DNA of 62,033 nt from Deltaproteobacteria bacterium (GTDB lineage Bacteria > Myxococcota_A > Polyangia > Polyangiales > Polyangiaceae): NCBI GenBank assembly GCA_016209145.1, contig JACQWT010000051.1:1-62033 (forward strand). Reading direction: 5' to 3'. Below, piece after piece: positions 2,697-62,033 of this stretch. Numbering within the stretch: position 1 is the first letter of the stretch; each line of letters opens with the position of its first letter. The position numbers and the translations under genes were made by a program. Below the pieces are notes generated by a model, which was given only the letters and a program-made list of their open reading frames with translations, did not search any database and had not been told where the DNA came from.

Positions 2697-5303
2697 TTGA
2701 GCATTGCGATAGGGGTCGACATCGGCACGGCAGGCGCGAGCGTGGCCGTGTTCCGCCAGGGCCGGGCCGAGGTTATCGCCGACGGCAGCGGCCTGAGGCG
2801 CACCCCCGCGGCGGTGGCCCTTTCCGGCGGCGTGGTGCGCGTCGGGCAGGGGGCCATGAGCCGGCTCGCCGGCGAGCCATCGACCACGGTGCGCGCGCCG
2901 AAGCGGCTGCTGGGCGGGCCACCGGTCCTGCTGGGCAAGGAGCAGCACAGCCCCGCGCGCCTGGTCGGCCTGCTGGTGGGCCAGATGGTGGCCACCGCAG
3001 AGGCCGTGACCGCAGAGCGGCCGCTCGGCATGGTCCTTGCGGCACCAGTGTGGTTTGGGCCGGAGCAGCGCCAGGCGCTCGCCGAGGCGGGGCGGCAGGC
3101 CGGCGTCGAGGTGCTCGCCCTCGTGCTCGATCCCACGGCCGTGGCCATCCGGCAGTGCGACCTGGGCGTGCAGGCGCGGCGGGCGGTGGTGGTCGATGCC
3201 GGTGCCGGCGGCATCAGTGTCGCCGTGCTCGCCATCGGCCCGCGGGCCGTACGCCTGGTCTCCGCCGCGGGCGACGATCGCGCGGGAGGCGATGCGTTCG
3301 ACGGGGCCATCGTGCGCCGCGCGATCGAGAAGCTCGGGCCGCAAGGCGGCGCGGCGGCCGGCGACCCGGTTCGGGGCGAGCTGCTGCGGCAACGCTGCGA
3401 GGAGATCAAACGCGAGCTGAGCGATTTGGATGCCACGAGCATGCCGCTTCCCTTCCTGCCGCCCTGCGCCGACGGCTCGCCGCCCTCGCTGGCGATGACG
3501 CGTGCCGAGCTGCAAGCGCTGCTCGGCGACTTGCTGCCGCGCACGGCCTTGTGCTGCGAGCGCGCGCTGCGCGACGCGGGCACGAGCAAGCAGGAGATCG
3601 ACGCGCTGCTCGTCACGGGCGGCATGGCGCACGTGCCTGAGCTCCGGCGCGCTATCGAGCTGGTGTGCGGGGGAGCCAAGGCGCAGCTCCAGCCGGCCGG
3701 CGCTCTCGCCCACGGAGCGGCGCTGCTCGCCGGCGCCCTGAGCGGCCTGGACGAGGAGCTACTCGCCGACGAAGGCGCGAGCGGGGGAGCCCAATCCCGT
3801 CGGACGTCGAGCCGCCCGGCCGCGCCCGCCCCGGTGCCCAGCCGCCCGGCCATCCCCGCCCCGGTGCCCAGCCGCCCGGCCATCCCCGCCCCGGTGCCCA
3901 GCCGCCCCGCCGCATCCGCCGCGGCACCCAGCCGCCCCGCCGCTCTCGCCCCGGCACCCAGCCGCCCCGCCGCTCTCGCCCCGGCACCGAGCGCCCCAGC
4001 CGCGCCGGTTCCCACGCCGCCCGTGGCGGCGGCGGCCGCCCCGCCTGCCGCGCCCGCGCCGCCCGGTAGTGCCCCCGGTCCGGCCTGGCTCGAGTCGGGC
4101 CTGGCCTTGCCGGCCGAATGGGCCGGCGTCCCCCCTGCCCCGCGCTCGCAGCCCAGCCTCCCGCCCGTGCCCGAGCGCGGCACGATCCGCAACCCGTCGG
4201 ACGCGGCTTCGCTGCTGGGGCTCCCGCTGTCTCGGCCGCCCACCGCCGCCGAGCTCGAGCCCGTGGCGCTGGCGGTGCTCCTGGCGCGCCTGCTGCGCCG
4301 CCGCGCCGTCACCGGACAGCTCGAGATCAAGCGGGGCGAGCGCAGCGTCGAGCTGCGCGTGCTGGCCGGCCGGGGACTCATCGACAAGAGGGAACGCGAC
4401 AGCCTGCTCGATGCCTTCGGCTGGCCCGAGGCGAGCTACCTGTTCAAGGCGCAGGAACCGCGGGGCATGGGCGCCGAGTCGATTGGCCTGCTCGGGCTGG
4501 CTGCCGAGGGACTGCGCGTCCAGCTCCGCGGCCTCGGGGCCGAGGAGCTGGAGAAGGAGCTCGGCGAGCTGCTCGATCTCGCGCCGAGCGTGGACCACGA
4601 GCGGATCGGAGTGCTGCGGCAGCTCGGCCTGAACCAGCGCGACATGCGCTTCGTGGACTTCGCCCTGGACGGCTCGGCCAGCGGCCGGCACGTCGTCTTG
4701 CACGGCGGCATAGCCCGGCGCACTGCTCTGCAGGTTCTGGGCCTGCTCCAACTCTTCGCCTGCCTGCGCTGGAAGCCCGTCGTCGTGAAGGAAGACCTCG
4801 TGGGCGAGCTGGCACGCCGCTGCGGGCGGACGCTGCGCGCCAATCACTTCGAGGCCCTCGGCGTGCACTGGAGCGCCGGCACCGACGACGTCGAGAATGC
4901 CTACCGCCGTCTTGCCGAGCAGCTCGCCCCGGGCGGCCCATGGAGCGAAGCGGCCCCGGAGGCATGCCGCCAGATGCGCGAGCGGGCGGAGGCCGCCTAC
5001 GCCGTGCTGCGCGACCCGAAGGCCCGCATCGCGTACCGCCGCAAGGCCCACCCGGACATCGACTTCCACGCCATCGACGACCTGCTGGATCAGAAGGCCA
5101 AGGCGCTGGCGATGCGGCAGGCCGACCGCGAGGCCGAAGAGGAGACGCAACGGCGCGAGGAGCTGCGGGCTTCCTGGCACGGGCCCGAGCCACGCAGCCG
5201 GAGCTCGCGCCCGGGCGCCCGCGACAGCGAGCAGCCGTCGCCCTCGACGCGGCCGCCGGCGCCGTCCGCCGGGCCGCACGGCACCGGCGCGGGGAAGCGC
5301 TAG
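2697..5303 (+). CDS. Hsp70-like ATPase fused to a Pro-rich repeat linker, a DUF4388-like region and a C-terminal J-like domain lacking HPD
   Basis: IGVDIGTAGASVAVF...TPAAVA, VVVDAGAGGISVAVL and LLVTGGMAHVPELR are actin/Hsp70 nucleotide-binding motifs. The C-terminus has NHFEALGV...ENAYRRLAEQLAPGG...AYAVLRDPKARIAYRR, which is J-domain-like with APG where HPD is expected. Probable TTG start at 2697. Confidence 0.7.
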   Translation: MSIAIGVDIGTAGASVAVFRQGRAEVIADGSGLRRTPAAVALSGGVVRVGQGAMSRLAGEPSTTVRAPKRLLGGPPVLLGKEQHSPARLVGLLVGQMVATAEAVTAERPLGMVLAAPVWFGPEQRQALAEAGRQAGVEVLALVLDPTAVAIRQCDLGVQARRAVVVDAGAGGISVAVLAIGPRAVRLVSAAGDDRAGGDAFDGAIVRRAIEKLGPQGGAAAGDPVRGELLRQRCEEIKRELSDLDATSMPLPFLPPCADGSPPSLAMTRAELQALLGDLLPRTALCCERALRDAGTSKQEIDALLVTGGMAHVPELRRAIELVCGGAKAQLQPAGALAHGAALLAGALSGLDEELLADEGASGGAQSRRTSSRPAAPAPVPSRPAIPAPVPSRPAIPAPVPSRPAASAAAPSRPAALAPAPSRPAALAPAPSAPAAPVPTPPVAAAAAPPAAPAPPGSAPGPAWLESGLALPAEWAGVPPAPRSQPSLPPVPERGTIRNPSDAASLLGLPLSRPPTAAELEPVALAVLLARLLRRRAVTGQLEIKRGERSVELRVLAGRGLIDKRERDSLLDAFGWPEASYLFKAQEPRGMGAESIGLLGLAAEGLRVQLRGLGAEELEKELGELLDLAPSVDHERIGVLRQLGLNQRDMRFVDFALDGSASGRHVVLHGGIARRTALQVLGLLQLFACLRWKPVVVKEDLVGELARRCGRTLRANHFEALGVHWSAGTDDVENAYRRLAEQLAPGGPWSEAAPEACRQMRERAEAAYAVLRDPKARIAYRRKAHPDIDFHAIDDLLDQKAKALAMRQADREAEEETQRREELRASWHGPEPRSRSSRPGARDSEQPSPSTRPPAPSAGPHGTGAGKR
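3811..3990 (+). repeat. Six tandem 30-bp in-frame repeats (PAPVPSRPAI-type decapeptides) inside the Hsp70-like gene
   Basis: Units start at 3811, 3841, 3871, 3901, 3931 and 3961 (gccgcccggccatccccgccccggtgccca and variants). Confidence 0.9.
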
Positions 5304-5551
5304 TGGGCCGTCCCGCAAGTCCCGCGGATAAGGGGCGGGACGGCCCACTTCGCGGGGAAGGCCACGCCGCTTGCAATTGCGGCCTTCGGCCGCGCAAGCG
5401 GCGTGCCCTCCCCGCGGGCCCTACCGGGGGAGGCGGGGCGCCGCCTCCCACGGCCCCCCACCCGCGTGGCGCGTCCCGGCAATTTCTCCGCACGACTTGT
5501 GGGACGCGCCACTAGCGCGGCGGCCGGCCGTGCTAGGATGGGCCTTTGGCC

Positions 5552-8542
<2,991 letters not shown>

Positions 8543-10318
8543 GCCGGCGCGGGCCAAAGGCCGTGGGATCGGCCGCGTCGGCGTCCATGAGCTGGGTAGG
8601 CGTGTCCCGGCCGAAGTCGTCGGGATGCCCGGGATCGTCGAGCAGCACGTGCCCGAGCTCGTGCGGCACGGTGAACGAGGCGCGGCCCGCGTGCAGCCCG
8701 GCGCGGTCGACCAGCACGACGTTGCGCAGGGCGCCGCGGTCGGCGCCGATGAACGACTCGCCGATGCGCCCGCCGCGGCTGAAGCCCGGGAGCACGAGCA
8801 CGTCGATGGTGCGCGGATCGCCGTCGTCGTAGGCCCTGATGAGCGTGCGCTCCTCCACCGTCCCCACGACGGCATCGATGTCGCCGAAGTGGTCGAGCCC
8901 ATCGTCGAGGTTCACGTGGCCGATGCAGACGCCCATGCTCTCGTCGCTGGACAGGGGCCCGTGCGCCGGCGGCTCGATCGCGACGAGCTCGCCGCCGGAC
9001 CGCCGCACGGAGATGTCCGTGGAGCCGTGGGCGCCGGCCGAGGAGCGCGGGTTGTCCGAGACGAGGGCCGCGAGCCCGGCCCGGCGAACGGCCGCCGCCA
9101 CCAGCCGCGCCGCTTCCTGGGGCAGTGCGCCGGCCGGGACCCACGCCTGGATCGGCCGCTCGCCCGCGCGAAACCGCACCAGGCCGCCGCTCGCGGGCGC
9201 GCCGTCGCCGCAGCCCAGCACCAGCAGGTGCGCGGGCGGCGGGGCGACGATCTGCACCGCTGCCTCGGCCGGCGGCCCGAAGCTGACGCCGCAGGCGCCC
9301 CAGAGGGCATTTGCCCGCGCGATCTCGGCGCGCGCCAGCGCGATGGCGCCGGGCTCGTCGCCGCCCAAGGGGACCGCCCCGCCCGGCGCCAGGCGCACGA
9401 GCAGCAGGCGCATGGTGGCGCGGTAGCGCCGGATCGGCCCCAGGGCGGAGCGCCGCGGGCCGCCCACCCGGATCGCTTGCAGCTCCCGGCCCTGCGGGCC
9501 GAGGAGCACGAGCGCGCCGCCCAGCTCGGCCAACACCGAGCGGCTCGCCACGAGCGGGTGCTGGGCATCGACCGGATCGGCCACGGCGCGGATGGGCGCG
9601 CTCCCGACGCAGATCTGACTCGCGGGCACGGGAGCCGGGCACGGCGCGGGCAAGAGCGGGACGCGCGAGAGCTCGCCGAGAAGCTCGCCCGCGGCCGAGA
9701 GCGAGCGAATGGCGAGCGCCTCCGGCAGCGCGCCTGGCTCGCCGGCGAGGACGTAGCGCAGCGCATCCGGATCCGCGCCTGCCCCGCCGGCGGCGTTGCC
9801 GTCGTCCCGGGGCACAGTGCGCTCGAGGCTGGCGTGCGAAGCCGTCAGATCCACGGCCTGCCCCGAGCCGTCCACGGCCCACACCGAGAGCGCCGACACG
9901 CTCGTCGTCCGGCCGCCCACCCGCACCGTGGCGGGGCCGGAGCCGGTGGCTTGCAGCTCGAGCCGCGCCGTCCCGGGCGGCACGAGCCGTCCGGAAGCGA
10001 GCGGCCGGCCATCGGCGAGCACGCGCACCGGCGCGCCGGGCGGCAGCTCGATCCGCGCCGCATGCCGTGGCAGATCGAGCCGCAGCAGCTCGGCGCTCGG
10101 CGGCACGAACGCCTGCCGGGCGTCGGCGACGCCGTCGGCGTCGTCGTCGTTCCAGTCGGCGCCGAGCACGGGATCCGCGGCCCGGCCGCGCGACGCCCCG
10201 CCGACAACGGCGCCCGCGAGCGCCGCGGCGAGCAGGCGGGCGGCGAGATGCGTCCGGCGCGTCACAATGCTGCCAGCGTAGCGCAGCCCGGGCGGGCGTG
10301 CGCTAGCATCTGCGGGCG

Positions 10319-55519: not shown

Positions 55520-56350
55520 CTAGCCCCGGCGCAGCCGATCGATCTCCGCCTGCAGCTCCGCGACGCGCCGCAGGGCCTCGTCGCGCTCCTGCTCGGCGCG
55601 CTCCCGCTCTTGCTCGGCGCGCTCCCGCTCTTGCTCGGCGCGCTCCCGCTCCTGCTCGGCGCGCTCACGGCGACCGACCAGATCGCCGACCATGGCCTCG
55701 AGCCTGGCCACGAGCTCGTCGGCCTCTGGCAGCGGCGCCGTGCCGAAGTAGAAGCGCAGACGCTCGTCGACAAGCGCCAGATCGAGGCCGAGCACCGCCG
55801 AGCTGTACAACCCCTGCTGCGGCATGATGGCCTCGTAGCTGCGGGCCTCGACGCGCGGCAGCCGCCAGCCGTAGAGCCGGCCGCGGGTTCGGTCGAACAA
55901 GAAGTACTCGGGGATCCCGAGCCGCGCGTAGCGCCGGCGGTTGCCCTCGAAGTCCTTGGCGAACTCACCGCTGACGTGGATCTCCAGCACCAGATCGAGC
56001 CCCTTGCCCTCGTGGCTCACGACCCACGTGCTGCGCTCGTGCGGCTCCACGTCGAGCACGGCCAGCACGTCCGGGGCGAAGCGCGGCTCGCCCGGGTAGT
56101 AGACGCTGAGCTCCGAGGACAGGTACACCTTGCGCCCGATGCGGCGGTAGAAAGCGTCGAGCGCGCCGAGCGCGCGCGACTTGGCGAGGCGGTGGGCGTC
56201 GCCCTCGGGCATGAACAGCTCGAGCGGCACCTCGCACGGCAGCGCCGCCACGACCCGGCGGCGTTCTTCGGACGACATGCGCTCCCACTGCTCGGCCGTG
56301 GGCGCCCGAGGATCGCTGGCGTCGAGGTGAAAGACGACGGGTTGGGTCAT
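55520..56350 (-). CDS. Uma2-family endonuclease with a C-terminal heptad-repeat extension
   Basis: ATG 56350. FMPEGDAHRLAKS...FAPDVLAVLDV...LDLVLEIHVS...YARLGIPEYFLFD, then a C-terminal (ERAEQER)x4 and VAELQAEIDRLRRG. Confidence 0.7.
   Translation of the reverse strand: MTQPVVFHLDASDPRAPTAEQWERMSSEERRRVVAALPCEVPLELFMPEGDAHRLAKSRALGALDAFYRRIGRKVYLSSELSVYYPGEPRFAPDVLAVLDVEPHERSTWVVSHEGKGLDLVLEIHVSGEFAKDFEGNRRRYARLGIPEYFLFDRTRGRLYGWRLPRVEARSYEAIMPQQGLYSSAVLGLDLALVDERLRFYFGTAPLPEADELVARLEAMVGDLVGRRERAEQERERAEQERERAEQERERAEQERDEALRRVAELQAEIDRLRRG
55583..55672 (-). repeat. Four tandem 21-bp in-frame repeats (ERAEQER heptads)
   Basis: gcgctcccgctcttgctcggc is repeated head-to-tail. Confidence 0.85.
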
Positions 56351-56425
56351 CACCACCAGGATAGCGCGGACCGGGCCCGGTGTGCTACGCACGGGCCGTC
56401 GCCCGCCCTCTCACGCAGTCTCCTC

Positions 56426-59206
56426 ATGCCCGCCCGTCGTTCACCCTACCTCCTGCGAGCGCGCCTGCTCACCCCGCTGCTGTGGTTCTTTCTGGCCGGG
56501 TGCAGCCTCGATGCGCCGGTAGATCCGCCGACCGGCCCGGGCCGGCGGCCGCAAGGCGTGCAGGCCGAGCAGCGGGCTTTCGCGCTGCCCGACCGGCTCG
56601 ACCTGACGCTTCCCTGGGGCCCCGGCCCGGCCGAGGTTCGCTTTTCGCCCCCCGGCCTCGAGCAGGTGGCGGCCGGCCCGAGCGCCATCGCCGTGACGCC
56701 CGACGGCGCGGCGCTGGTGCTCGATCGGCTCGGCGGCCGCGTGCTGCGCGTGACCGGGCCCGGCGGCGTGGCCGAGCTGGCGAAGGTGCCCCGCGACGCC
56801 GAGGACCTCGGCGTGGGGCCGGGGGGCGACATCGTCGTCTTCAGCCCGCTGCGGGCCACCGCTTGGCTCTTCGGCGCGGACGGCCGTGCGTCGGGCGAGC
56901 TCGGGGTGCCGCGCGTCTTGCGCGAGATCCAAGGGATCTCGCTCGGCGTGTCGCGCCGGGTACTGCTGCGCACGGCCTACCAGGAGCAGCTCGTGCTCGG
57001 CAGCCCCGCCGCACCGCTCTCCCTCGCCGCCGCGTTGCGCACCAAGGCCGAGGGTGCCTTCGCGATCGGGAACGGCCGGACGGTGGCCGCCCGCGTCGAC
57101 GGCGAGGCCGCCGCGATCGTCGTGCTGGAGCCCGGGCCGGCGGAGGATCCGCGGGCGCGCGAGGTGCAGCGCCACCGCCTCCCGGGCGAGGCGAGCGCGG
57201 TTCGCCTCGTTGGCGCCGCGGGCTCGCTCGTGTGCGCGCGCATCGAGCGCGTGCGCTCGAGTCCCGAAATCGAGGTCGAGCGCCGCGCCGTCTGCCTCGA
57301 CGCCGGCACAGGCGACGTGCTCGCCGAGCTCGCCCTGCCGCCGCCCGGATCGTACGTGCCGCGCACCGAGCTCGCCGTTGGCGGCGCCGAGCTGACGGCG
57401 CGCAGGCTGCTCGCGGCCGGATGCGCGGCGCTCTGCGTGCTTGGCCTGGCGCCGCCGGCGCTCGCCATCAGCCGCGACGAGGTCATGGTCCGGGCCAAGG
57501 CATTCGCCTATCACCCCTGGACCTGCACCAACGCCAACCTCACCGCCCCGTGCAAGGGTGGCTACAAGAGCGCGTATGTGCCCGGCGACTACCTCGGCCT
57601 GCCCTACGACTGGGGCGGCTACATGACGCTGTTCGAGTTCGACCAGCAGATCGCCAAGGGCTACGGCGCGGGCTCCTACCCCCAGGACGGCGTGCTCGAG
57701 TGCACTGCGGGCGTCGACTGCTCGGGCTACGTGAGCAAGTGCTGGGACGCCGCACACTACGGGACGGCGTCGCTCGGCCAGATCTCGTCGGCCATCGACG
57801 TCTCGGCCCTGCTCGCCGGCGATGCGCTCAACAAGCCCGACTACCACGTCGTGCTCTTCAGCCACAAGACGGGCGGTGGTGAGCCGGTTTTCTACGAGGC
57901 CGTCGGATACAACGTCCACGTCAACGTCAGCGCCGGCTGGTCGTACGTCGCGGGCTACACGCCGCGGCGCTACCAGGGCATCACGGGCTCTTCCGCCGGC
58001 AACCCCGCGGGCACGCCGCTCAATCCCATCGTCATTGGCGCCCTGCCCTACACCGACCAGCGCGACACGACCGAGAGCGCGAGCGACGTGCTCGACGGCT
58101 GCGGCGCCGCGCCGAGCAAGCAGGAGTCTGGCCCCGAGTACGTCTACCAGCTCGACGTCAAGCAGCCCGGCACGCTCACGGCTGCGATCCAGGACGATGT
58201 CAACGTGGACATCGACGTGCACCTGTACACCTCGATGAACACGGGCGACTGTGTCGCGCGCGACGACAGCAAGCTCAGCTACCCGGTCGACTGCGGCACC
58301 TACTACATCGTCGCGGACACGTTCCACAGCGGCAGCAGCGGCAAGGACTACCCCGGACCCTACTCGCTGACCGTCACGCTCGCGCCCTCGGGCAAGAGCT
58401 GCGGCGGCGGCCCGCCCCAGTATGCCTTCGAGGGCGAGCTGGGCGATCCCTGCGCCTACCCCGGCGACGAGAGCCTGCCCTTCTGCAACCCGAACCTCGG
58501 CGCGGACACGTGCCTGTACGGTGATGCCACGAGCTTCTGCTCCAAGCCGTGCGACTCGGACGGCGACTGCAAGGGGCTTGCCGGCGGCTGCTGCGGCGAC
58601 ATCGGCCAGAATGAGCTCTACTGCCTGACCGCCGAGCTGTGCGGCTCCGGCCCGCCCGACGGCGGCTCCAGCTCCAGCTCGACGTCAAGCTCGGGCTCCA
58701 GCTCCAGCACGAGCTCCACCACGAGCTCGGGCTCCACGTCGACCGGCTCCAGCAGCGGCGGCGGCGCAGGCGGCGGCGTCGCGCCGGGCGGCGGCGGCCC
58801 GGGCACGGGCGGCGAGGCAAGCTCCACGAGCGGATCGAGCGCAGGGGGCAAGAAGCGGGGTGCGGACAGCGAGGACGAAGGCGGGTGCGCCCTGGCGCCC
58901 GGGCGAGGGCGCGGTGGGGGCGCGATGCTGTGGCTGCTCGCCGCCCTGGTCGCTCTGGCACGGGGCCGCAAGGCTGCGGGCGACCGGCTGCGGGCATGGA
59001 TCGGGGTTGGATTTCCTGGTCACCCGCTACCGGATTTTGAGAAGCTACGGAATTGGCCTGATATTTCTTCGTATTCCCGCGAGGCCGCGCGTGGAGCTCG
59101 ACTGGACCACCGTGGACAAGCTGGCCGCGATGAATACCGACTTCGAGAACTTTCTGAAAAACGTCACCTACGATCTTGGGACGGACATTCACCCGAAGGA
59201 GTATGA
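56426..59206 (+). CDS. Composite ORF: N-terminal lipoprotein region, then an NlpC/P60-like cysteine peptidase, a PPC-like domain, a Cys-rich module, a Ser-rich linker and a MYXO-CTERM-like tail
   Basis: ATG 56426 with lipobox FFLAGC. An internal signal-like TARRLLAAGCAALCVLGLAPPALA at ~57395. GVDCSGYVSKCWD...HVVLF (NlpC/P60-like). GGCALAPGRGRGGGAMLWLLAALVALARGRK near 58880-58975. The ORF then reads on into low-GC DNA. Confidence 0.55.
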   Translation: MPARRSPYLLRARLLTPLLWFFLAGCSLDAPVDPPTGPGRRPQGVQAEQRAFALPDRLDLTLPWGPGPAEVRFSPPGLEQVAAGPSAIAVTPDGAALVLDRLGGRVLRVTGPGGVAELAKVPRDAEDLGVGPGGDIVVFSPLRATAWLFGADGRASGELGVPRVLREIQGISLGVSRRVLLRTAYQEQLVLGSPAAPLSLAAALRTKAEGAFAIGNGRTVAARVDGEAAAIVVLEPGPAEDPRAREVQRHRLPGEASAVRLVGAAGSLVCARIERVRSSPEIEVERRAVCLDAGTGDVLAELALPPPGSYVPRTELAVGGAELTARRLLAAGCAALCVLGLAPPALAISRDEVMVRAKAFAYHPWTCTNANLTAPCKGGYKSAYVPGDYLGLPYDWGGYMTLFEFDQQIAKGYGAGSYPQDGVLECTAGVDCSGYVSKCWDAAHYGTASLGQISSAIDVSALLAGDALNKPDYHVVLFSHKTGGGEPVFYEAVGYNVHVNVSAGWSYVAGYTPRRYQGITGSSAGNPAGTPLNPIVIGALPYTDQRDTTESASDVLDGCGAAPSKQESGPEYVYQLDVKQPGTLTAAIQDDVNVDIDVHLYTSMNTGDCVARDDSKLSYPVDCGTYYIVADTFHSGSSGKDYPGPYSLTVTLAPSGKSCGGGPPQYAFEGELGDPCAYPGDESLPFCNPNLGADTCLYGDATSFCSKPCDSDGDCKGLAGGCCGDIGQNELYCLTAELCGSGPPDGGSSSSSTSSSGSSSSTSSTTSSGSTSTGSSSGGGAGGGVAPGGGGPGTGGEASSTSGSSAGGKKRGADSEDEGGCALAPGRGRGGGAMLWLLAALVALARGRKAAGDRLRAWIGVGFPGHPLPDFEKLRNWPDISSYSREAARGARLDHRGQAGRDEYRLRELSEKRHLRSWDGHSPEGV

Positions 59207-59331
59207 CGAGGTGCCTGATGATGCCGCTCGCTATGTCAAGGAGCGCAGAGCATGCAGGGGCACTTCTCGCTCGCCGGCGTAGTCCCGCGAACTGTTGAAG
59301 GTTGAGTGGCGGCTTCCACCAACCCGATCGG

Positions 59332-59856
59332 ATGATCGGGCTTGCAAAGGAGGTCGCCGCCCTGAAGGAAGCTGCCAGGAAGAGAGCCGCGAGGGAGGGG
59401 CCTGCCGCACAGCCGACGCTTCCGCTCGGCGCGGCGGTGCGCGAGTCGCTGCTGGAGACACTGATCGCGTCGGGGATGGCCCACGTCTACGAGGTGCTGG
59501 AGCGTGGGCGCGTCGCCGCGTGCGGACCGCGCCACGAGCATGACGCCGAGCGCCGGGCGCGCCGTGCGGGCCACACGCCGGGGGCGCTCGTCCACGGTGG
59601 CCGTCGCGTCGCGGTGCGCCGGCCGCGTGCGCGCACCGTCGGCGGCCGCGAGGTCGAGCTGCCGAGCTGGCGCGCCTGGTCCGACGAGGACCCGCCGCGG
59701 GAGCGCGCGATCGAGCAAATGGTCGTGTGTGTCTCGACCCGCCGGTACGACCGCTCGCGGGAGCCGGTCCCCGACGTCGTGCCCAGGGATGCCCCCGCTC
59801 GTCGCTGCTCTCCGTGCCCACGACGCGAAGCTCGACGGAGCTACGCGCCCAGTTGA
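59332..59856 (+). pseudogene. N-terminal fragment of an IS256-family (Mutator-type) transposase
   Basis: LLETLIASGMAHVYEVLERGRVAACGPRHEHDAERRARRAGHTPGALVHGGRRVAVRRPRARTVGGREVELPSW...VSTRRYDRS matches the N-terminal third of IS256-type transposases. The DDE region is absent. Confidence 0.55.
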
Positions 59857-60085: not shown

Positions 60086-60901
60086 TCAATCTGCGACCAG
60101 GGAGCCGCGGTGAAGCTGCCCCCGCAGCTCGGCGTAGCGGGCCGGTGAGAGAGCCGCGTTCCACGTCCGCCGCTTGCGCGAGAGCCACGAAAGAAGACGG
60201 CCAGGGTCAGTCGGCGGCGCCGCACGGGCTGCTTCGCCAGCCAGATTGGCAAGCCGGCCGACCGGATCCTTCTCGGAAGCTGCCTGCCGGCCCACGTCCG
60301 CAACCAGGGCGAGACGAAATGCGAGCACGGTCCAGCGCGCCACCGCGATGGTCTGCGCCAGTGAGAAGCCGATCGGGCCGCGCAGGTCGGTGGCGGCAAG
60401 CTCGGGATCGACGTCGAGCCGGTCGAGCGTCCAGCGAAGGAGATGGACGCCCGAGGTCCACTTCCCGCGCCGCTCGACGCACGTGCGGAAGTAGCCGCGC
60501 GACAGGCTCACCATGGCCACCTCGGCCCGGCAGCCCTCGACCCGGTGGAGCGCGGCCATGGTGGCGATCTTCGTGCCGAGGTGGCCGTAGTTCTGGACCT
60601 CCTCGATCACGGCGTCAGCCGGAAGCTGGCCGTTCGGCTTCTCGGCGAGACCCCGTTCCAACGCGCCGACGTTGGCCTCGGCTACGAGGACCGCGCGCTT
60701 CTTCGGGTAGACCTTGGCGTGCGCGGCCTGTTCCCAGGCAGCCGACTCGGCCAGGAGATCCTTGCGCAGCAGCAGGCCGCAGGTCGTGCGCTCGGGGTGC
60801 GAGAGGATGAGCCGGTGGCGCGTGCAGTAGCCGAAGGCGGTGCCCACGGGCCCGATCTGCAGCGGGTTGTGGCAGCAGTTGACGCAAGAGAGCGGCTGCA
60901 T
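60086..60901 (-). CDS. Hypothetical protein with an N-terminal Cys cluster (second gene of a coupled pair)
   Basis: 271 aa with protein-like composition. MQPLSCVNCCHNPLQIGPVGTAFGYCTRHRLILSHPERTTCG, then a helical region. ATG 60901 overlaps the stop of the upstream gene (TGATG). Confidence 0.5.
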   Translation of the reverse strand: MQPLSCVNCCHNPLQIGPVGTAFGYCTRHRLILSHPERTTCGLLLRKDLLAESAAWEQAAHAKVYPKKRAVLVAEANVGALERGLAEKPNGQLPADAVIEEVQNYGHLGTKIATMAALHRVEGCRAEVAMVSLSRGYFRTCVERRGKWTSGVHLLRWTLDRLDVDPELAATDLRGPIGFSLAQTIAVARWTVLAFRLALVADVGRQAASEKDPVGRLANLAGEAARAAPPTDPGRLLSWLSRKRRTWNAALSPARYAELRGQLHRGSLVAD

Positions 60902-61350
60902 CAGATCCTCACTCGCGCCTTGGCGAATGTCCCGCGCACCTTCTCCTCGATCATCTCAGCAGCAACGGTGGTCCAGTCAAGCAGGTGCTCGCTCCACTGG
61001 GCTACGTAGGCCGCGGCCTGCGCCACCTCGAAGGCGTCGTGCCACTTGGCCTTGCCCTTGCCGAAGCCGCGCAGGTTCTCGAGGAGCTGCTTGCGCGGCA
61101 GATGCTCGGCTCCTGCCGTCGTGGCCGTCGGCACGTCCGTCTGCCAGACCTGGCCCGTCTGGCCGGCGAAGTACTCGGCCACCTCGACGGACTCGGTCGT
61201 CGACGTGAAGGGCGTGCTGCGCCCGGGACCGCCGAGGTAGAGGACATGCGCCACAAGGCTCGTGCGGGAGGTCGGATCGGGCACGGCCGGTCCGGCAGCA
61301 GCATCGCCGCGGTAGAGCGGGTCGCGCGTCGTCCAGGGCTTGCGCGCCAT
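60901..61350 (-). CDS. Hypothetical 149-aa protein (first gene of the pair) with a weak R-S-E-like residue pattern
   Basis: ATG 61350 within ORF 60901..61500. MARKPWTTRDPLYRGD...RSTPFTSTTESVEVAEYF...AQWSEHLLDW. No recognised family. Confidence 0.4.
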   Translation of the reverse strand: MARKPWTTRDPLYRGDAAAGPAVPDPTSRTSLVAHVLYLGGPGRSTPFTSTTESVEVAEYFAGQTGQVWQTDVPTATTAGAEHLPRKQLLENLRGFGKGKAKWHDAFEVAQAAAYVAQWSEHLLDWTTVAAEMIEEKVRGTFAKARVRI

Positions 61351-61542
61351 GACGAGCGTGAGAGTAGCACAAGGGGACGGCGGACGTGTTGGCGACGCGG
61401 TCTTGGCGTCGGCGCGCGCAGGCGTGACGTGGTCGCCCGCGCGCGGCCCCGCCAGGCCGCAGCCGACCGCCTTCCGGCATGGATCGGGCTTGGATTCCAT
61501 GCGAACGCCTCTGCGCCGCGCGAGCAGGCGGTGATAGCCTGG

Positions 61543-61667
61543 CCCTAGGAGTCTGTCGGAGAAAAAACTAAGTGCGCGGAATTATTAGGTTCCAGCGTCA
61601 GAGTAAAGTGAGCGATTTCGATAACTTGGACCATTTCGAGCACGCTTTCTCCGACACACTCCTAGGG
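61543..61667. repeat. 125-bp element: 22-bp near-perfect inverted repeats flanking an 81-bp low-GC core, ending 3 nt before an ATG
   Basis: CCCTAGGAGTCTGTCGGAGAAA at 61543-61564 versus TTTCTCCGACACACTCCTAGGG at 61646-61667 (21/22 complementary). Confidence 0.6.
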
Positions 61668-61670
61668 ACG

Positions 61671-62033
61671 ATGCTGGCGAACCGGCGCAGCCTGGTGGGT
61701 GCCCTGGCCGCCGCGCTCCTGCTTGCGGGGGGCGCGGAGTGCGGGGGCAGTGCCACCATCGACAGCGGCGGCGGGGCCGGCGCCGGCAATGGAGACGGAG
61801 GCGCGGCCGGCCACGGCGGCCACGGCGGCCACGGCGGCCACGGCGGCCACGGCGGCCACGGCGGCGCGGGCGGCGACGCCGGCTGCGGCCCGTGCGCGGC
61901 GGGATGGCAGTGCTGCAGCGGGCAGTGCGTGGACGCGGCGAGCGATCCGGCCAACTGCGGCGGCTGCGGCCAGGCCTGCGCGCCGGGCCGGCCCTGCACG
62001 CTCGGGCAGTGCGGGCCGGGGTGCATCGGCTGC
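61671..62033 (+). CDS. Partial (5' end) secreted Cys-rich repeat protein, paralogous to the repeat region of the 38138 gene
   Basis: It is missing from the ORF track, presumably because it runs off the window. MLANRRSLVGALAAALLLAGGAEC (lipobox), (GHG)6, then CCSGQCVDAASDPANCGGCGQACAPGRPCTLGQC. Confidence 0.55.
   Translation, partial: MLANRRSLVGALAAALLLAGGAECGGSATIDSGGGAGAGNGDGGAAGHGGHGGHGGHGGHGGHGGAGGDAGCGPCAAGWQCCSGQCVDAASDPANCGGCGQACAPGRPCTLGQCGPGCIGC
61809..61862 (+). repeat. Six tandem 9-bp repeats (GGCCACGGC, encoding Gly-His-Gly)
   Basis: Read directly from the sequence. Confidence 0.9.

Follow-up and report, generated by a model that had tools for sequence, protein, structure and literature searches.

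The locus considered here raises a simple question: do two short overlapping genes of no recognisable family form a functional unit and, if so, of what kind? The genes lie near one end of a 62,033-nt stretch of DNA, hereafter the window, which is contig JACQWT010000051.1 of assembly GCA_016209145.1 from a member of the Polyangiaceae (Myxococcota_A) deposited as Deltaproteobacteria bacterium. An earlier reading made from the sequence only had described them as a translationally coupled operon and a candidate toxin-immunity or defence pair, and its coordinates, lengths, strand and TGATG overlap all proved exact (Table 1). Our computational follow-up leads to a more specific proposal, to which we give a probability of about 0.55: the first or 'small' gene would encode a toxin of the ADP-ribosyltransferase (ART) fold and the second or 'large' gene its cognate neutralising partner, the whole being a toxin-antitoxin or abortive-infection cassette of new composition.

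The two reading frames are not chance open reading frames (ORFs), since each protein has dozens to hundreds of homologues. An alternative in-frame start at 61500 would extend the small protein to 199 aa; the 149-aa product was retained because the homologues begin at M51 of this longer reading (MARKPW...). The stop codon of the first gene and the start codon of the second share a single base, an arrangement which, judged from the sequence, is one of translational coupling. The G+C content is about 70-77% in the window and about 67-71% in the gene pair, and a sequencing-run search located the source of the sequence in groundwater-metagenome DNA runs only.

A first search returned 32 homologues of the small protein and 69 of the large protein. 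Deeper profile searches enlarged the small family to 80 clusters at 50% identity (exhaustive search of 1.84 billion representatives, in which the family appears small and sharply bounded) and the large family to 306 clusters at 90% identity. All members of the small family and every listed member of the large family are unnamed or labeled 'hypothetical protein', the latter being devoid of any Pfam domain. Neither protein matches a model of Pfam, NCBIfam, PADLOC or PHROGs, in agreement with the earlier statement that no family could be recognised. Scanning the 32 members of the small family singly, with E-values up to 10, produced nothing meaningful, and profile searches of both families against the sequences of the PDB gave chance-level matches only.

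The pairing of the two genes is essentially obligate. A search seeded with the large protein and restricted to one genome per species produced 30 loci; wherever an intact large gene is available with its upstream sequence, the small gene or a remnant of it is found directly upstream on the same strand. In locus L035, a 56-residue fragment of the large gene is all that is left and the small gene is entirely gone. The loci seeded with the small protein (L040-L048) all carry the large gene downstream, in a sample limited to two distinct places (L040/L041 and L042/L043) and to five metagenome loci (L044-L048), these five being the total recovered with a narrower alignment of the small family. The two genes run in the same direction and abut or overlap wherever enough sequence is available, and annotated overlaps of 1 or 4 nt recur (L002, L005, L040, L050). 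An all-against-all comparison of the flanking ORFs revealed no conserved third gene, the recurring antisense ORFs being high-GC artefacts. The divergences of the small and large proteins are correlated over 27 intact pairs (Mantel r = 0.80; 0 of 2000 permutations as high). Adjacency and co-inheritance, as expected of toxin-antitoxin modules, are therefore both found. Two outcomes had been named beforehand as damaging to the idea of a pair, namely homologues that never co-occur and homology to a housekeeping family. The homologues occur together essentially always, with gene order and coupling preserved, and no family, housekeeping or otherwise, matches either protein.

A second line of evidence concerns the way in which the cassette decays. 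Six independent loci have a small gene damaged by frameshift, in-frame stop or truncation next to a full-length large gene (280-410 bits; Table 1). The reverse case, an intact small gene next to a broken large gene, occurs in no locus, and the sole damaged large gene, that of L035, has no small gene beside it. The small gene accounts for 450 of the 1265 nt of the pair, so that the confinement of all six damages to it has a p of about 0.002 under length-proportional decay. Such one-sided decay is what a toxin-antidote pair would be expected to show, with the small protein as the dangerous partner: in the sampled loci the putative toxin is never kept without the putative antidote, and an orphan copy of the latter is tolerated.

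The third line of evidence is the predicted structure of the small protein. The AlphaFold2 model calculated on the family alignment has a mean predicted local distance difference test (pLDDT) of 95.2 and a predicted template modeling score (pTM) of 0.88, with strands at residues 12-17, 48-52, 67-71, 82-84, 121-125 and 143-144. The core of an ART is taken as a split beta-sheet of six strands in the order 4-5-2/1-3-6, and the model displays six strands in the expected sequence order. The 20 best Foldseek matches of the model in the PDB are all ART-fold proteins drawn from at least six ART families, among which are KptA/Tpt1, the Rhs tips TreTu and TreX, cholera toxin A1, pertussis toxin S1, DarT and AvrPphF ORF2; TccC3, a PE-like toxin and PARP1 are found lower in the list. 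Since ART-fold chains represent a small fraction of the PDB, such an outcome is not due to chance if the model is right. On this model, the small protein would represent a new family of the ART fold that does not belong to any named family.

In ARTs, strands 1, 2 and 5 bear the catalytic triad; the clades distinguished are H-H-h, H-Y-[QED] and R-[ST]-E (PMC9825190). The sequence-only reading had pointed to the motifs LYRGD, FTSTTES and QWSEHLLDW, which are indeed present and contain R14, S50 and E121, respectively, and had speculated on an ART of the R-S-E type. At the level of the fold this guess is borne out by the model and its 20 matches, and the R / S-T-x / E residues turn out to be invariant and to lie on predicted strands 1, 2 and 5: R14 is within the first strand, as in R-[ST]-E enzymes, S50-T51-T52 within the second, in the manner of an S-T-S motif, and E121 at the head of the fifth. 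The residues R14, G15, D16, H35, S50, E121 and H122 are invariant in 27/27 intact members of the family, R44 is kept in 26 of these 27, and only S or T occurs at position 52. The stretch from strand 4 to strand 5, which in other ARTs holds the target-recognition or ADP-ribosylating toxin turn-turn (ARTT) loop, is made up in this family of two helices and an invariant Gly/Lys loop, RGFGKGKAKW, the composition of which suggests, as far as a loop can be interpreted, a phosphate-rich or nucleic-acid target.

The best fold matches of the small protein are to Tpt1/KptA (probability 0.89). These enzymes have about 180 aa arranged in two lobes, the N-terminal one binding RNA, and their active site is of the H-H-h / R-H-R-R type. 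An identity with them was rejected: most alignments cover about 80 columns, equivalent to one lobe, PF01885 is not matched, the small protein has 149 aa and its strand 1 carries Arg, not His.

A distant sister family (P0171, P0174, P0176 and others) retains R14, D16, H35, S50 and E121, with R14 present in 7/7 proteins; the R, H, S and E positions are thus kept and the Gly/Lys loop is missing. It also comprises P0177 and P0180, its members being about 140 aa long, and is represented in loci L049 and L051. The gene following the sister-family gene in L051 encodes at least 225 aa unrelated to the large protein (hhalign probability 3.5%). The partner is therefore not common to the whole superfamily, and mini-ARTs may pair with different partners.

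Longer proteins matching the small family were inspected. A match to a 4619-aa protein with VWC repeats spans 33 residues only and is spurious, a 396-aa 'fusion' looks like an over-called high-GC ORF, and the other longer matches are N-terminal over-calls. The exhaustive profile search yielded no credible fusion to Rhs, PAAR, LXG or any other delivery module. These results bear on the proposal that the small protein is an antibacterial effector, secreted or delivered by contact, and the large one its immunity protein, as in polymorphic-toxin systems. Such a proposal is invited by the closest compact structural match, TreTu, which is the toxic tip of an Rhs protein and is followed by an immunity gene. 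However, the small protein is a stand-alone polypeptide of 149 aa without signal peptide, lipobox or trafficking domain, and secretion-system genes do not recur in the vicinity. We consider this proposal highly improbable.

The large protein begins with the Cys cluster reported earlier (CVNCC...C...C), which is present and conserved. The conserved ligands are C6, C9, C10, H11, C26, H29 and C41 (codons 60886-60779), and a CxxC...CxxH pattern with three further ligands suggests, from the sequence pattern, one or two metal sites. In addition, R46-K47-D48-L49, E127, W190 and R196 are invariant and R135, Y137, C141, H153, R161, D172 and D202 nearly so. The AlphaFold2 model (pLDDT 95.1, pTM 0.92) consists of a small N-terminal domain with two short strands, followed from about residue 97 by a helical domain. 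A Foldseek search with this model found no relative, either among PDB entries (lowest E 1.7) or among those of BFVD (lowest E 0.75), all TM-scores being below 0.3. The profile searches, fold models and Foldseek comparisons suggested in the earlier reading have thus yielded an ART fold for the small protein and no relative for the large one. Readings of the latter as a macrodomain, an ARH or NADAR protein, a helix-turn-helix regulator or an MqsA-like protein were rejected, as neither fold nor profile supports them.

On the proposed reading, the small enzyme would use NAD+ to ADP-ribosylate an essential macromolecule and would be harmful when free. The large protein, translated in step with it by virtue of the TGATG overlap, would prevent the enzyme from doing harm, whether as a bound protein that covers the active site or by undoing the modification, and the two genes would act as a self-contained, horizontally mobile toxin/partner cassette. 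Bacterial ARTs are known to be neutralised in both of these ways, by removal of the mark as well as by blockage of the active site (PMC11699363; PMC9825190). The many conserved polar residues of the large protein exceed the needs of a simple plug, and the protein may therefore be an enzyme or a sensor. A bolder version of this idea, which we regard as unlikely, is that the large protein is not a passive plug and founds a new fold class of metal-cluster proteins working with ARTs, acting as a new kind of ADP-ribosyl 'eraser' or as a sensor, either of infection or of the restriction enzyme's state, that gates a nucleic-acid-modifying mini-ART.

The distribution and the neighbourhoods of the cassette were examined in about 38 distinct loci. 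Carriers are mostly Myxococcota and include Chromatiaceae, Stenotrophomonas, Methylococcales, Binatia and Anaerolineae as well. This patchy taxonomy, together with the deviating G+C content at third codon positions (GC3) of the Thiodictyon cassette in L030 (0.45-0.48, far below that of the flanking genes), indicates horizontal transfer. The cassette is mobile and has been repeatedly recruited into restriction-modification (R-M) operons, defence islands, an integrative and conjugative element (ICE) and a plasmid, about one third of the loci having defence or mobile neighbours (Table 1). The mobile accessory context that had been surmised for the window is thereby backed by neighbourhoods elsewhere. 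Two further observations were made in these regions. In L023, a 1782-aa ORF (4971-10316) combines a DnaG-type zinc finger and a Toprim primase with a reverse-transcriptase domain, and a 239-aa gene follows the cassette both in L002 (9056-9775, no Pfam or NCBIfam match) and in L038 (2882-3601, RhuM-family).

These contexts lend themselves to two other explanations. The pair might be a sensor-effector anti-phage system, in which the large protein senses infection, or the inhibition of the neighbouring restriction enzyme much as PrrC guards EcoprrI, and switches on a small ART that is inactive alone. The embedding of the pair in a type I R-M operon, its proximity to type IIG enzymes, Wadjet and TIR-SLOG genes, the position of the effector gene at the head of the operon and the metal cluster and invariant polar residues of the large protein, in excess of what a plug requires, all favor such a system; if this were true, the cassette would be a previously unrecognised anti-phage system backing up R-M enzymes. 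However, a small protein that is inert alone accounts less easily for the one-sided decay, many loci lack defence neighbours and the plasmid copy sits among addiction modules, which makes this explanation rather doubtful. Alternatively, the pair might be a housekeeping or regulatory couple of the DraT/DraG or SirTM/macrodomain kind, in which the small protein reversibly modifies a protein of the cell and the large one removes the mark. An ART fold with a conserved, possibly enzymatic partner and the many metabolic neighbourhoods would be compatible with this. Against it stand the lack of any recurring neighbour gene as a possible target, the patchy and horizontally transferred distribution with plasmid and ICE copies, the repeated insertion into R-M loci, the repeated pseudogenisation of the would-be writer and a partner without similarity to macrodomain, ARH or NADAR. 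Such a couple is quite improbable.

A number of observations weigh against the toxin/partner reading itself. About two thirds of the neighbourhoods consist of ordinary housekeeping or metabolic genes. Metabolic neighbours are nevertheless usual for small toxin-antitoxin cassettes. No viral copy was found in IMG/VR upon scanning with both families, no RNA run carrying the sequence of the pair was found in the sequencing-run search and neither protein matches any model of PADLOC-DB 2.0 with E-values up to 1. Several of the damaged small genes originate from contigs of metagenome-assembled genomes (MAGs), in which frameshifts can be assembly errors. The invariant polar residues of the large protein fit an enzyme or a sensor at least as well as a passive antitoxin. 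As to the small protein, each fold match is weak (E 0.1-3, the best being E 0.11 with a probability of 0.89; TM 0.28-0.46), and the assignment is therefore made at the level of the fold class and is not a homology proven by score. Sequence and profile methods tie the protein to no ART family, and the [QE]-x-E motif is absent: E121 is a single Glu and position 119, occupied by W, H or some other residue, in no case carries Q or E, as the earlier caveat about a non-canonical ExE motif had anticipated. Finally, the spatial clustering of R14, S50 and E121 is deduced from predicted secondary structure. The weak matches, the missing ExE motif and the lack of a profile-level link would also be accounted for if the likeness to ARTs were one of fold only, the protein having no NAD+-dependent activity and the pair another function. 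In view of the 20/20 best fold matches being ARTs and of residues invariant across two divergent families coinciding with the triad positions on strands 1, 2 and 5, this explanation appears distinctly improbable, and an ART-fold toxin with its neutralising partner is preferred.

The regulatory signals of the cassette were compared in the 75 nt preceding the small gene of 29 related loci. In the window, an extended -10-like element is found immediately upstream of the small gene (Table 1), which is not preceded by a Shine-Dalgarno site. A TAnnnT hexamer ending 4-13 nt before the start is present in 14 of the 29 loci (mean of 1.9 and maximum of 7 in 1000 shuffles), and 9 of these 14 have a TG upstream of it (shuffles: mean 0.34, maximum 4). 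The Myxococcota copies (e.g. L005, L010, L014, L016, L019, L022 and L044) display TGnTAnnnT right before the start and no Shine-Dalgarno site; gammaproteobacterial copies (L030, L032, L040 and L046) display GGAG-type ribosome-binding sites instead. A generic scan for sigma-70 promoters and terminators detected nothing. The cassette seems to carry its own promoter and, from these sequence signals, its mRNA is probably leaderless or near-leaderless in Myxococcota.

Within the window, two direct repeats bound a segment of about 2.5 kb, with the gene pair at its right end and an insertion sequence (IS) fragment between the left repeat and the pair. The segment appears to have inserted long ago into the 3' end of a secreted-protein gene; no integrase is left. 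The product of this gene (ORF 55610-59206) has a C-terminus resembling, by sequence, a MYXO-CTERM sorting tail, and the right copy of the repeat encodes a decayed version of the peptide encoded by the left copy. The IS match is weak, with residues 74-151 of the fragment aligned to positions 5-83 of a 338-position profile at a score far below the family cutoff; Pfam and a plasmid search returned no match for it. The repeats noted in the earlier reading are real, including a 22-nt inverted repeat that had been placed in the promoter region. The right arm of the latter ends 4 nt before the ATG (61672) of a Stig1-like gene and lies outside the right direct repeat. Because of this position, outside the repeat-bounded segment and directly before the start of the neighbour, it probably belongs to the neighbour and is improbable as an operator of the pair; it may be a hairpin in the 5' untranslated region of the Stig1-like gene or a miniature element with terminal inverted repeats. 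The Stig1-like product comprises a signal peptide, a (GH)-rich repeat (HGGHGGHGG...) and the Stig1-like Cys-rich domain. A Uma2-family gene is located 3.7 kb from the pair, and the cassette has Uma2 neighbours in two further loci.

Table 1. Features of the window and of related loci carrying the cassette
Sequence	Feature	Position	Strand	Basis or remark
Window	Small gene, 149 aa	61350-60901	minus	ORF and translation; putative toxin/effector
Window	Large gene, 271 aa	60901-60086	minus	ORF and translation; putative neutralising partner (antitoxin/immunity) or sensor
Window	TGATG stop/start overlap	60903-60899	minus	TGA 60903-60901, ATG 60901-60899, one base in common (60901)
Window	GAGG, Shine-Dalgarno-like site of large gene	60910-60907	minus	5 nt 5' of large-gene ATG
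Window	R14 codon	61311-61309	minus	
Window	S50 codon	61203-61201	minus	
Window	E121 codon	60990-60988	minus	
Window	Extended -10-like TGcTACTCT	61361-61369	minus	Ends 10 nt before small-gene ATG
Window	Left 72-nt direct repeat	58947-59018	plus	Repeat search, 78% identity; inside 3' end of ORF 55610-59206
Window	Right 72-nt direct repeat	61430-61501	plus	Repeat search; resembles 3' end of upstream secreted-protein gene
Window	IS256-family transposase, decayed N-terminal fragment	59302-59856	plus	NCBIfam NF033543, E 6e-5, 22 bits
Window	22-nt inverted repeat	61543-61564 / 61646-61667		One mismatch; encloses 81 nt, AT-richer; unique in window
Window	Stig1-like Cys-rich secreted-protein gene	61572-62033		PF04885, E 1.4e-7; runs past window end
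Window	Uma2-family putative restriction endonuclease gene	55520-56392	minus	PF05685, E 1e-15
L001	Small gene frameshifted			Large gene intact
L017/L038/L039	Small gene cut to last ~25 residues			Large gene intact
L029	N-terminal half of small gene gone			Large gene intact
L018	N-terminus of small gene gone, including strand 1			Large gene intact
L019	In-frame stop in small gene			Large gene intact
L033 (Thiohalocapsa)	In-frame stop in small gene at position just before H35			Large gene intact
Sorangium cellulosum So ceGT47	Cassette inside type I operon			Co-directional hsdR-small-large-hsdM-hsdS
L011, L021, L037	MmeI/Eco57I-type (type IIG/IIL) gene			Ends directly upstream of cassette
L002	NERD-kinase giant and MmeI-like gene			After cassette
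L030 (Thiodictyon)	TIR-SLOG gene			Upstream of cassette
L034	JetC-JetD (Wadjet)			Precede cassette
L023 (Binatia MAG)	Primase-reverse-transcriptase			Directly downstream of cassette
L040	SAVED-domain fragment, two Tle1-like fragments, CTD6, MC2, AAA_23 ATPase, KorA	4457-9969		ICE-like; upstream of cassette
L040	Integrase and TraG/DotM genes			Downstream, other side of cassette
L042	Bub/ThiF/ubiquitin-like genes			Near cassette
Ca. Methylospira mobilis 17.9-kb plasmid	Tyrosine recombinase/integrase, ParDE, HicAB; IS66			On one side of cassette; IS66 on the other

Modules such as DarTG, ParST, Tre1-Tri1, TreTu-TriTu and CmdTAC have recently become central to the biology of bacterial conflicts and phage defence. 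A literature search found no description of either family presented here. If the proposed reading is true, it adds to this field a very small ART family absent from Pfam, NCBIfam, PADLOC and PHROGs, as well as a partner family of about 300 clusters that is confidently modelled, carries a conserved Cys/His cluster and lacks relatives among either solved or viral structures. An ART of 149 aa that relies on one catalytic Glu would be a useful minimal model of the functional needs of the fold. The repeated insertion of the cassette in R-M operons leads to a concrete hypothesis of layered immunity, notably for the Myxococcota, whose defence repertoire is poorly explored.

Among known systems, DarT-DarG is similar in its organisation, with a small ART-fold toxin gene first and a larger coupled partner second, and it too is mobile and occurs in defence contexts as a two-gene module; DarT, moreover, is one of the fold matches. 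However, PF14487 is not matched, PADLOC does not recognise the pair, and DarT is of the H-Y-E type whereas the triad of the small protein is of the R-S-E type. DarG neutralises its toxin by means of a macrodomain, whereas the large protein has neither a macrodomain nor any known fold. A different parallel is offered by PrrC, a single anticodon nuclease encoded within the EcoprrI type I R-M genes and held in check by the restriction enzyme itself. The So ceGT47 pair is likewise located between hsdR and hsdM-hsdS in one co-directional operon. Unlike PrrC, the cassette brings its own partner, and most of its loci are away from R-M genes.

With respect to structure, the best compact match is TreTu (130-aa target, TM 0.46 normalised to the target), which resembles the small protein in being a minimal ART whose strand 1 carries Arg and whose triad is unorthodox. 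TreTu is neutralised by the product of the adjacent gene, TriTu, through a lid-like closure of the active site (PMC9825190). The differences are substantial: a secreted Rhs protein has TreTu as its C-terminal tip whereas the small protein stands alone, the identity between the two is only 16%, and TriTu is a small beta-sheet protein whereas the large protein has 271 aa, a Cys/His cluster and helices. The cholera-toxin-like R-[ST]-E enzymes (ARTC clade), several of which are among the fold matches, share with the small protein the strand-1 Arg, the S-T-[ST] of strand 2 and a Glu heading strand 5. They differ from it by their [QE]-x-E motif, in place of which a single Glu is found (W-S-E here, varied residues in the sister family), and the small protein, of about 149 aa, has a helical insert and a Gly/Lys loop at the ARTT site and matches no Pfam ART model.

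The two modes of neutralisation considered for the large protein are both illustrated by Bxa, an ART toxin fused to a phage MuF protein, which is countered either by BAH, an immunity enzyme of the ARH family, or by Bsi, a small structural immunity protein (PMC11699363). In that system, neutralisation is achieved by an adjacent gene, through hydrolysis of the mark or occlusion of the active site. Bxa, BAH and Bsi have no kinship of sequence or fold with the small or large protein. ART toxin/partner modules are an already known kind of system, to which the present cassette would add an ART family of small size with a single-Glu triad, a partner of no known fold and a recurrent link to R-M operons.

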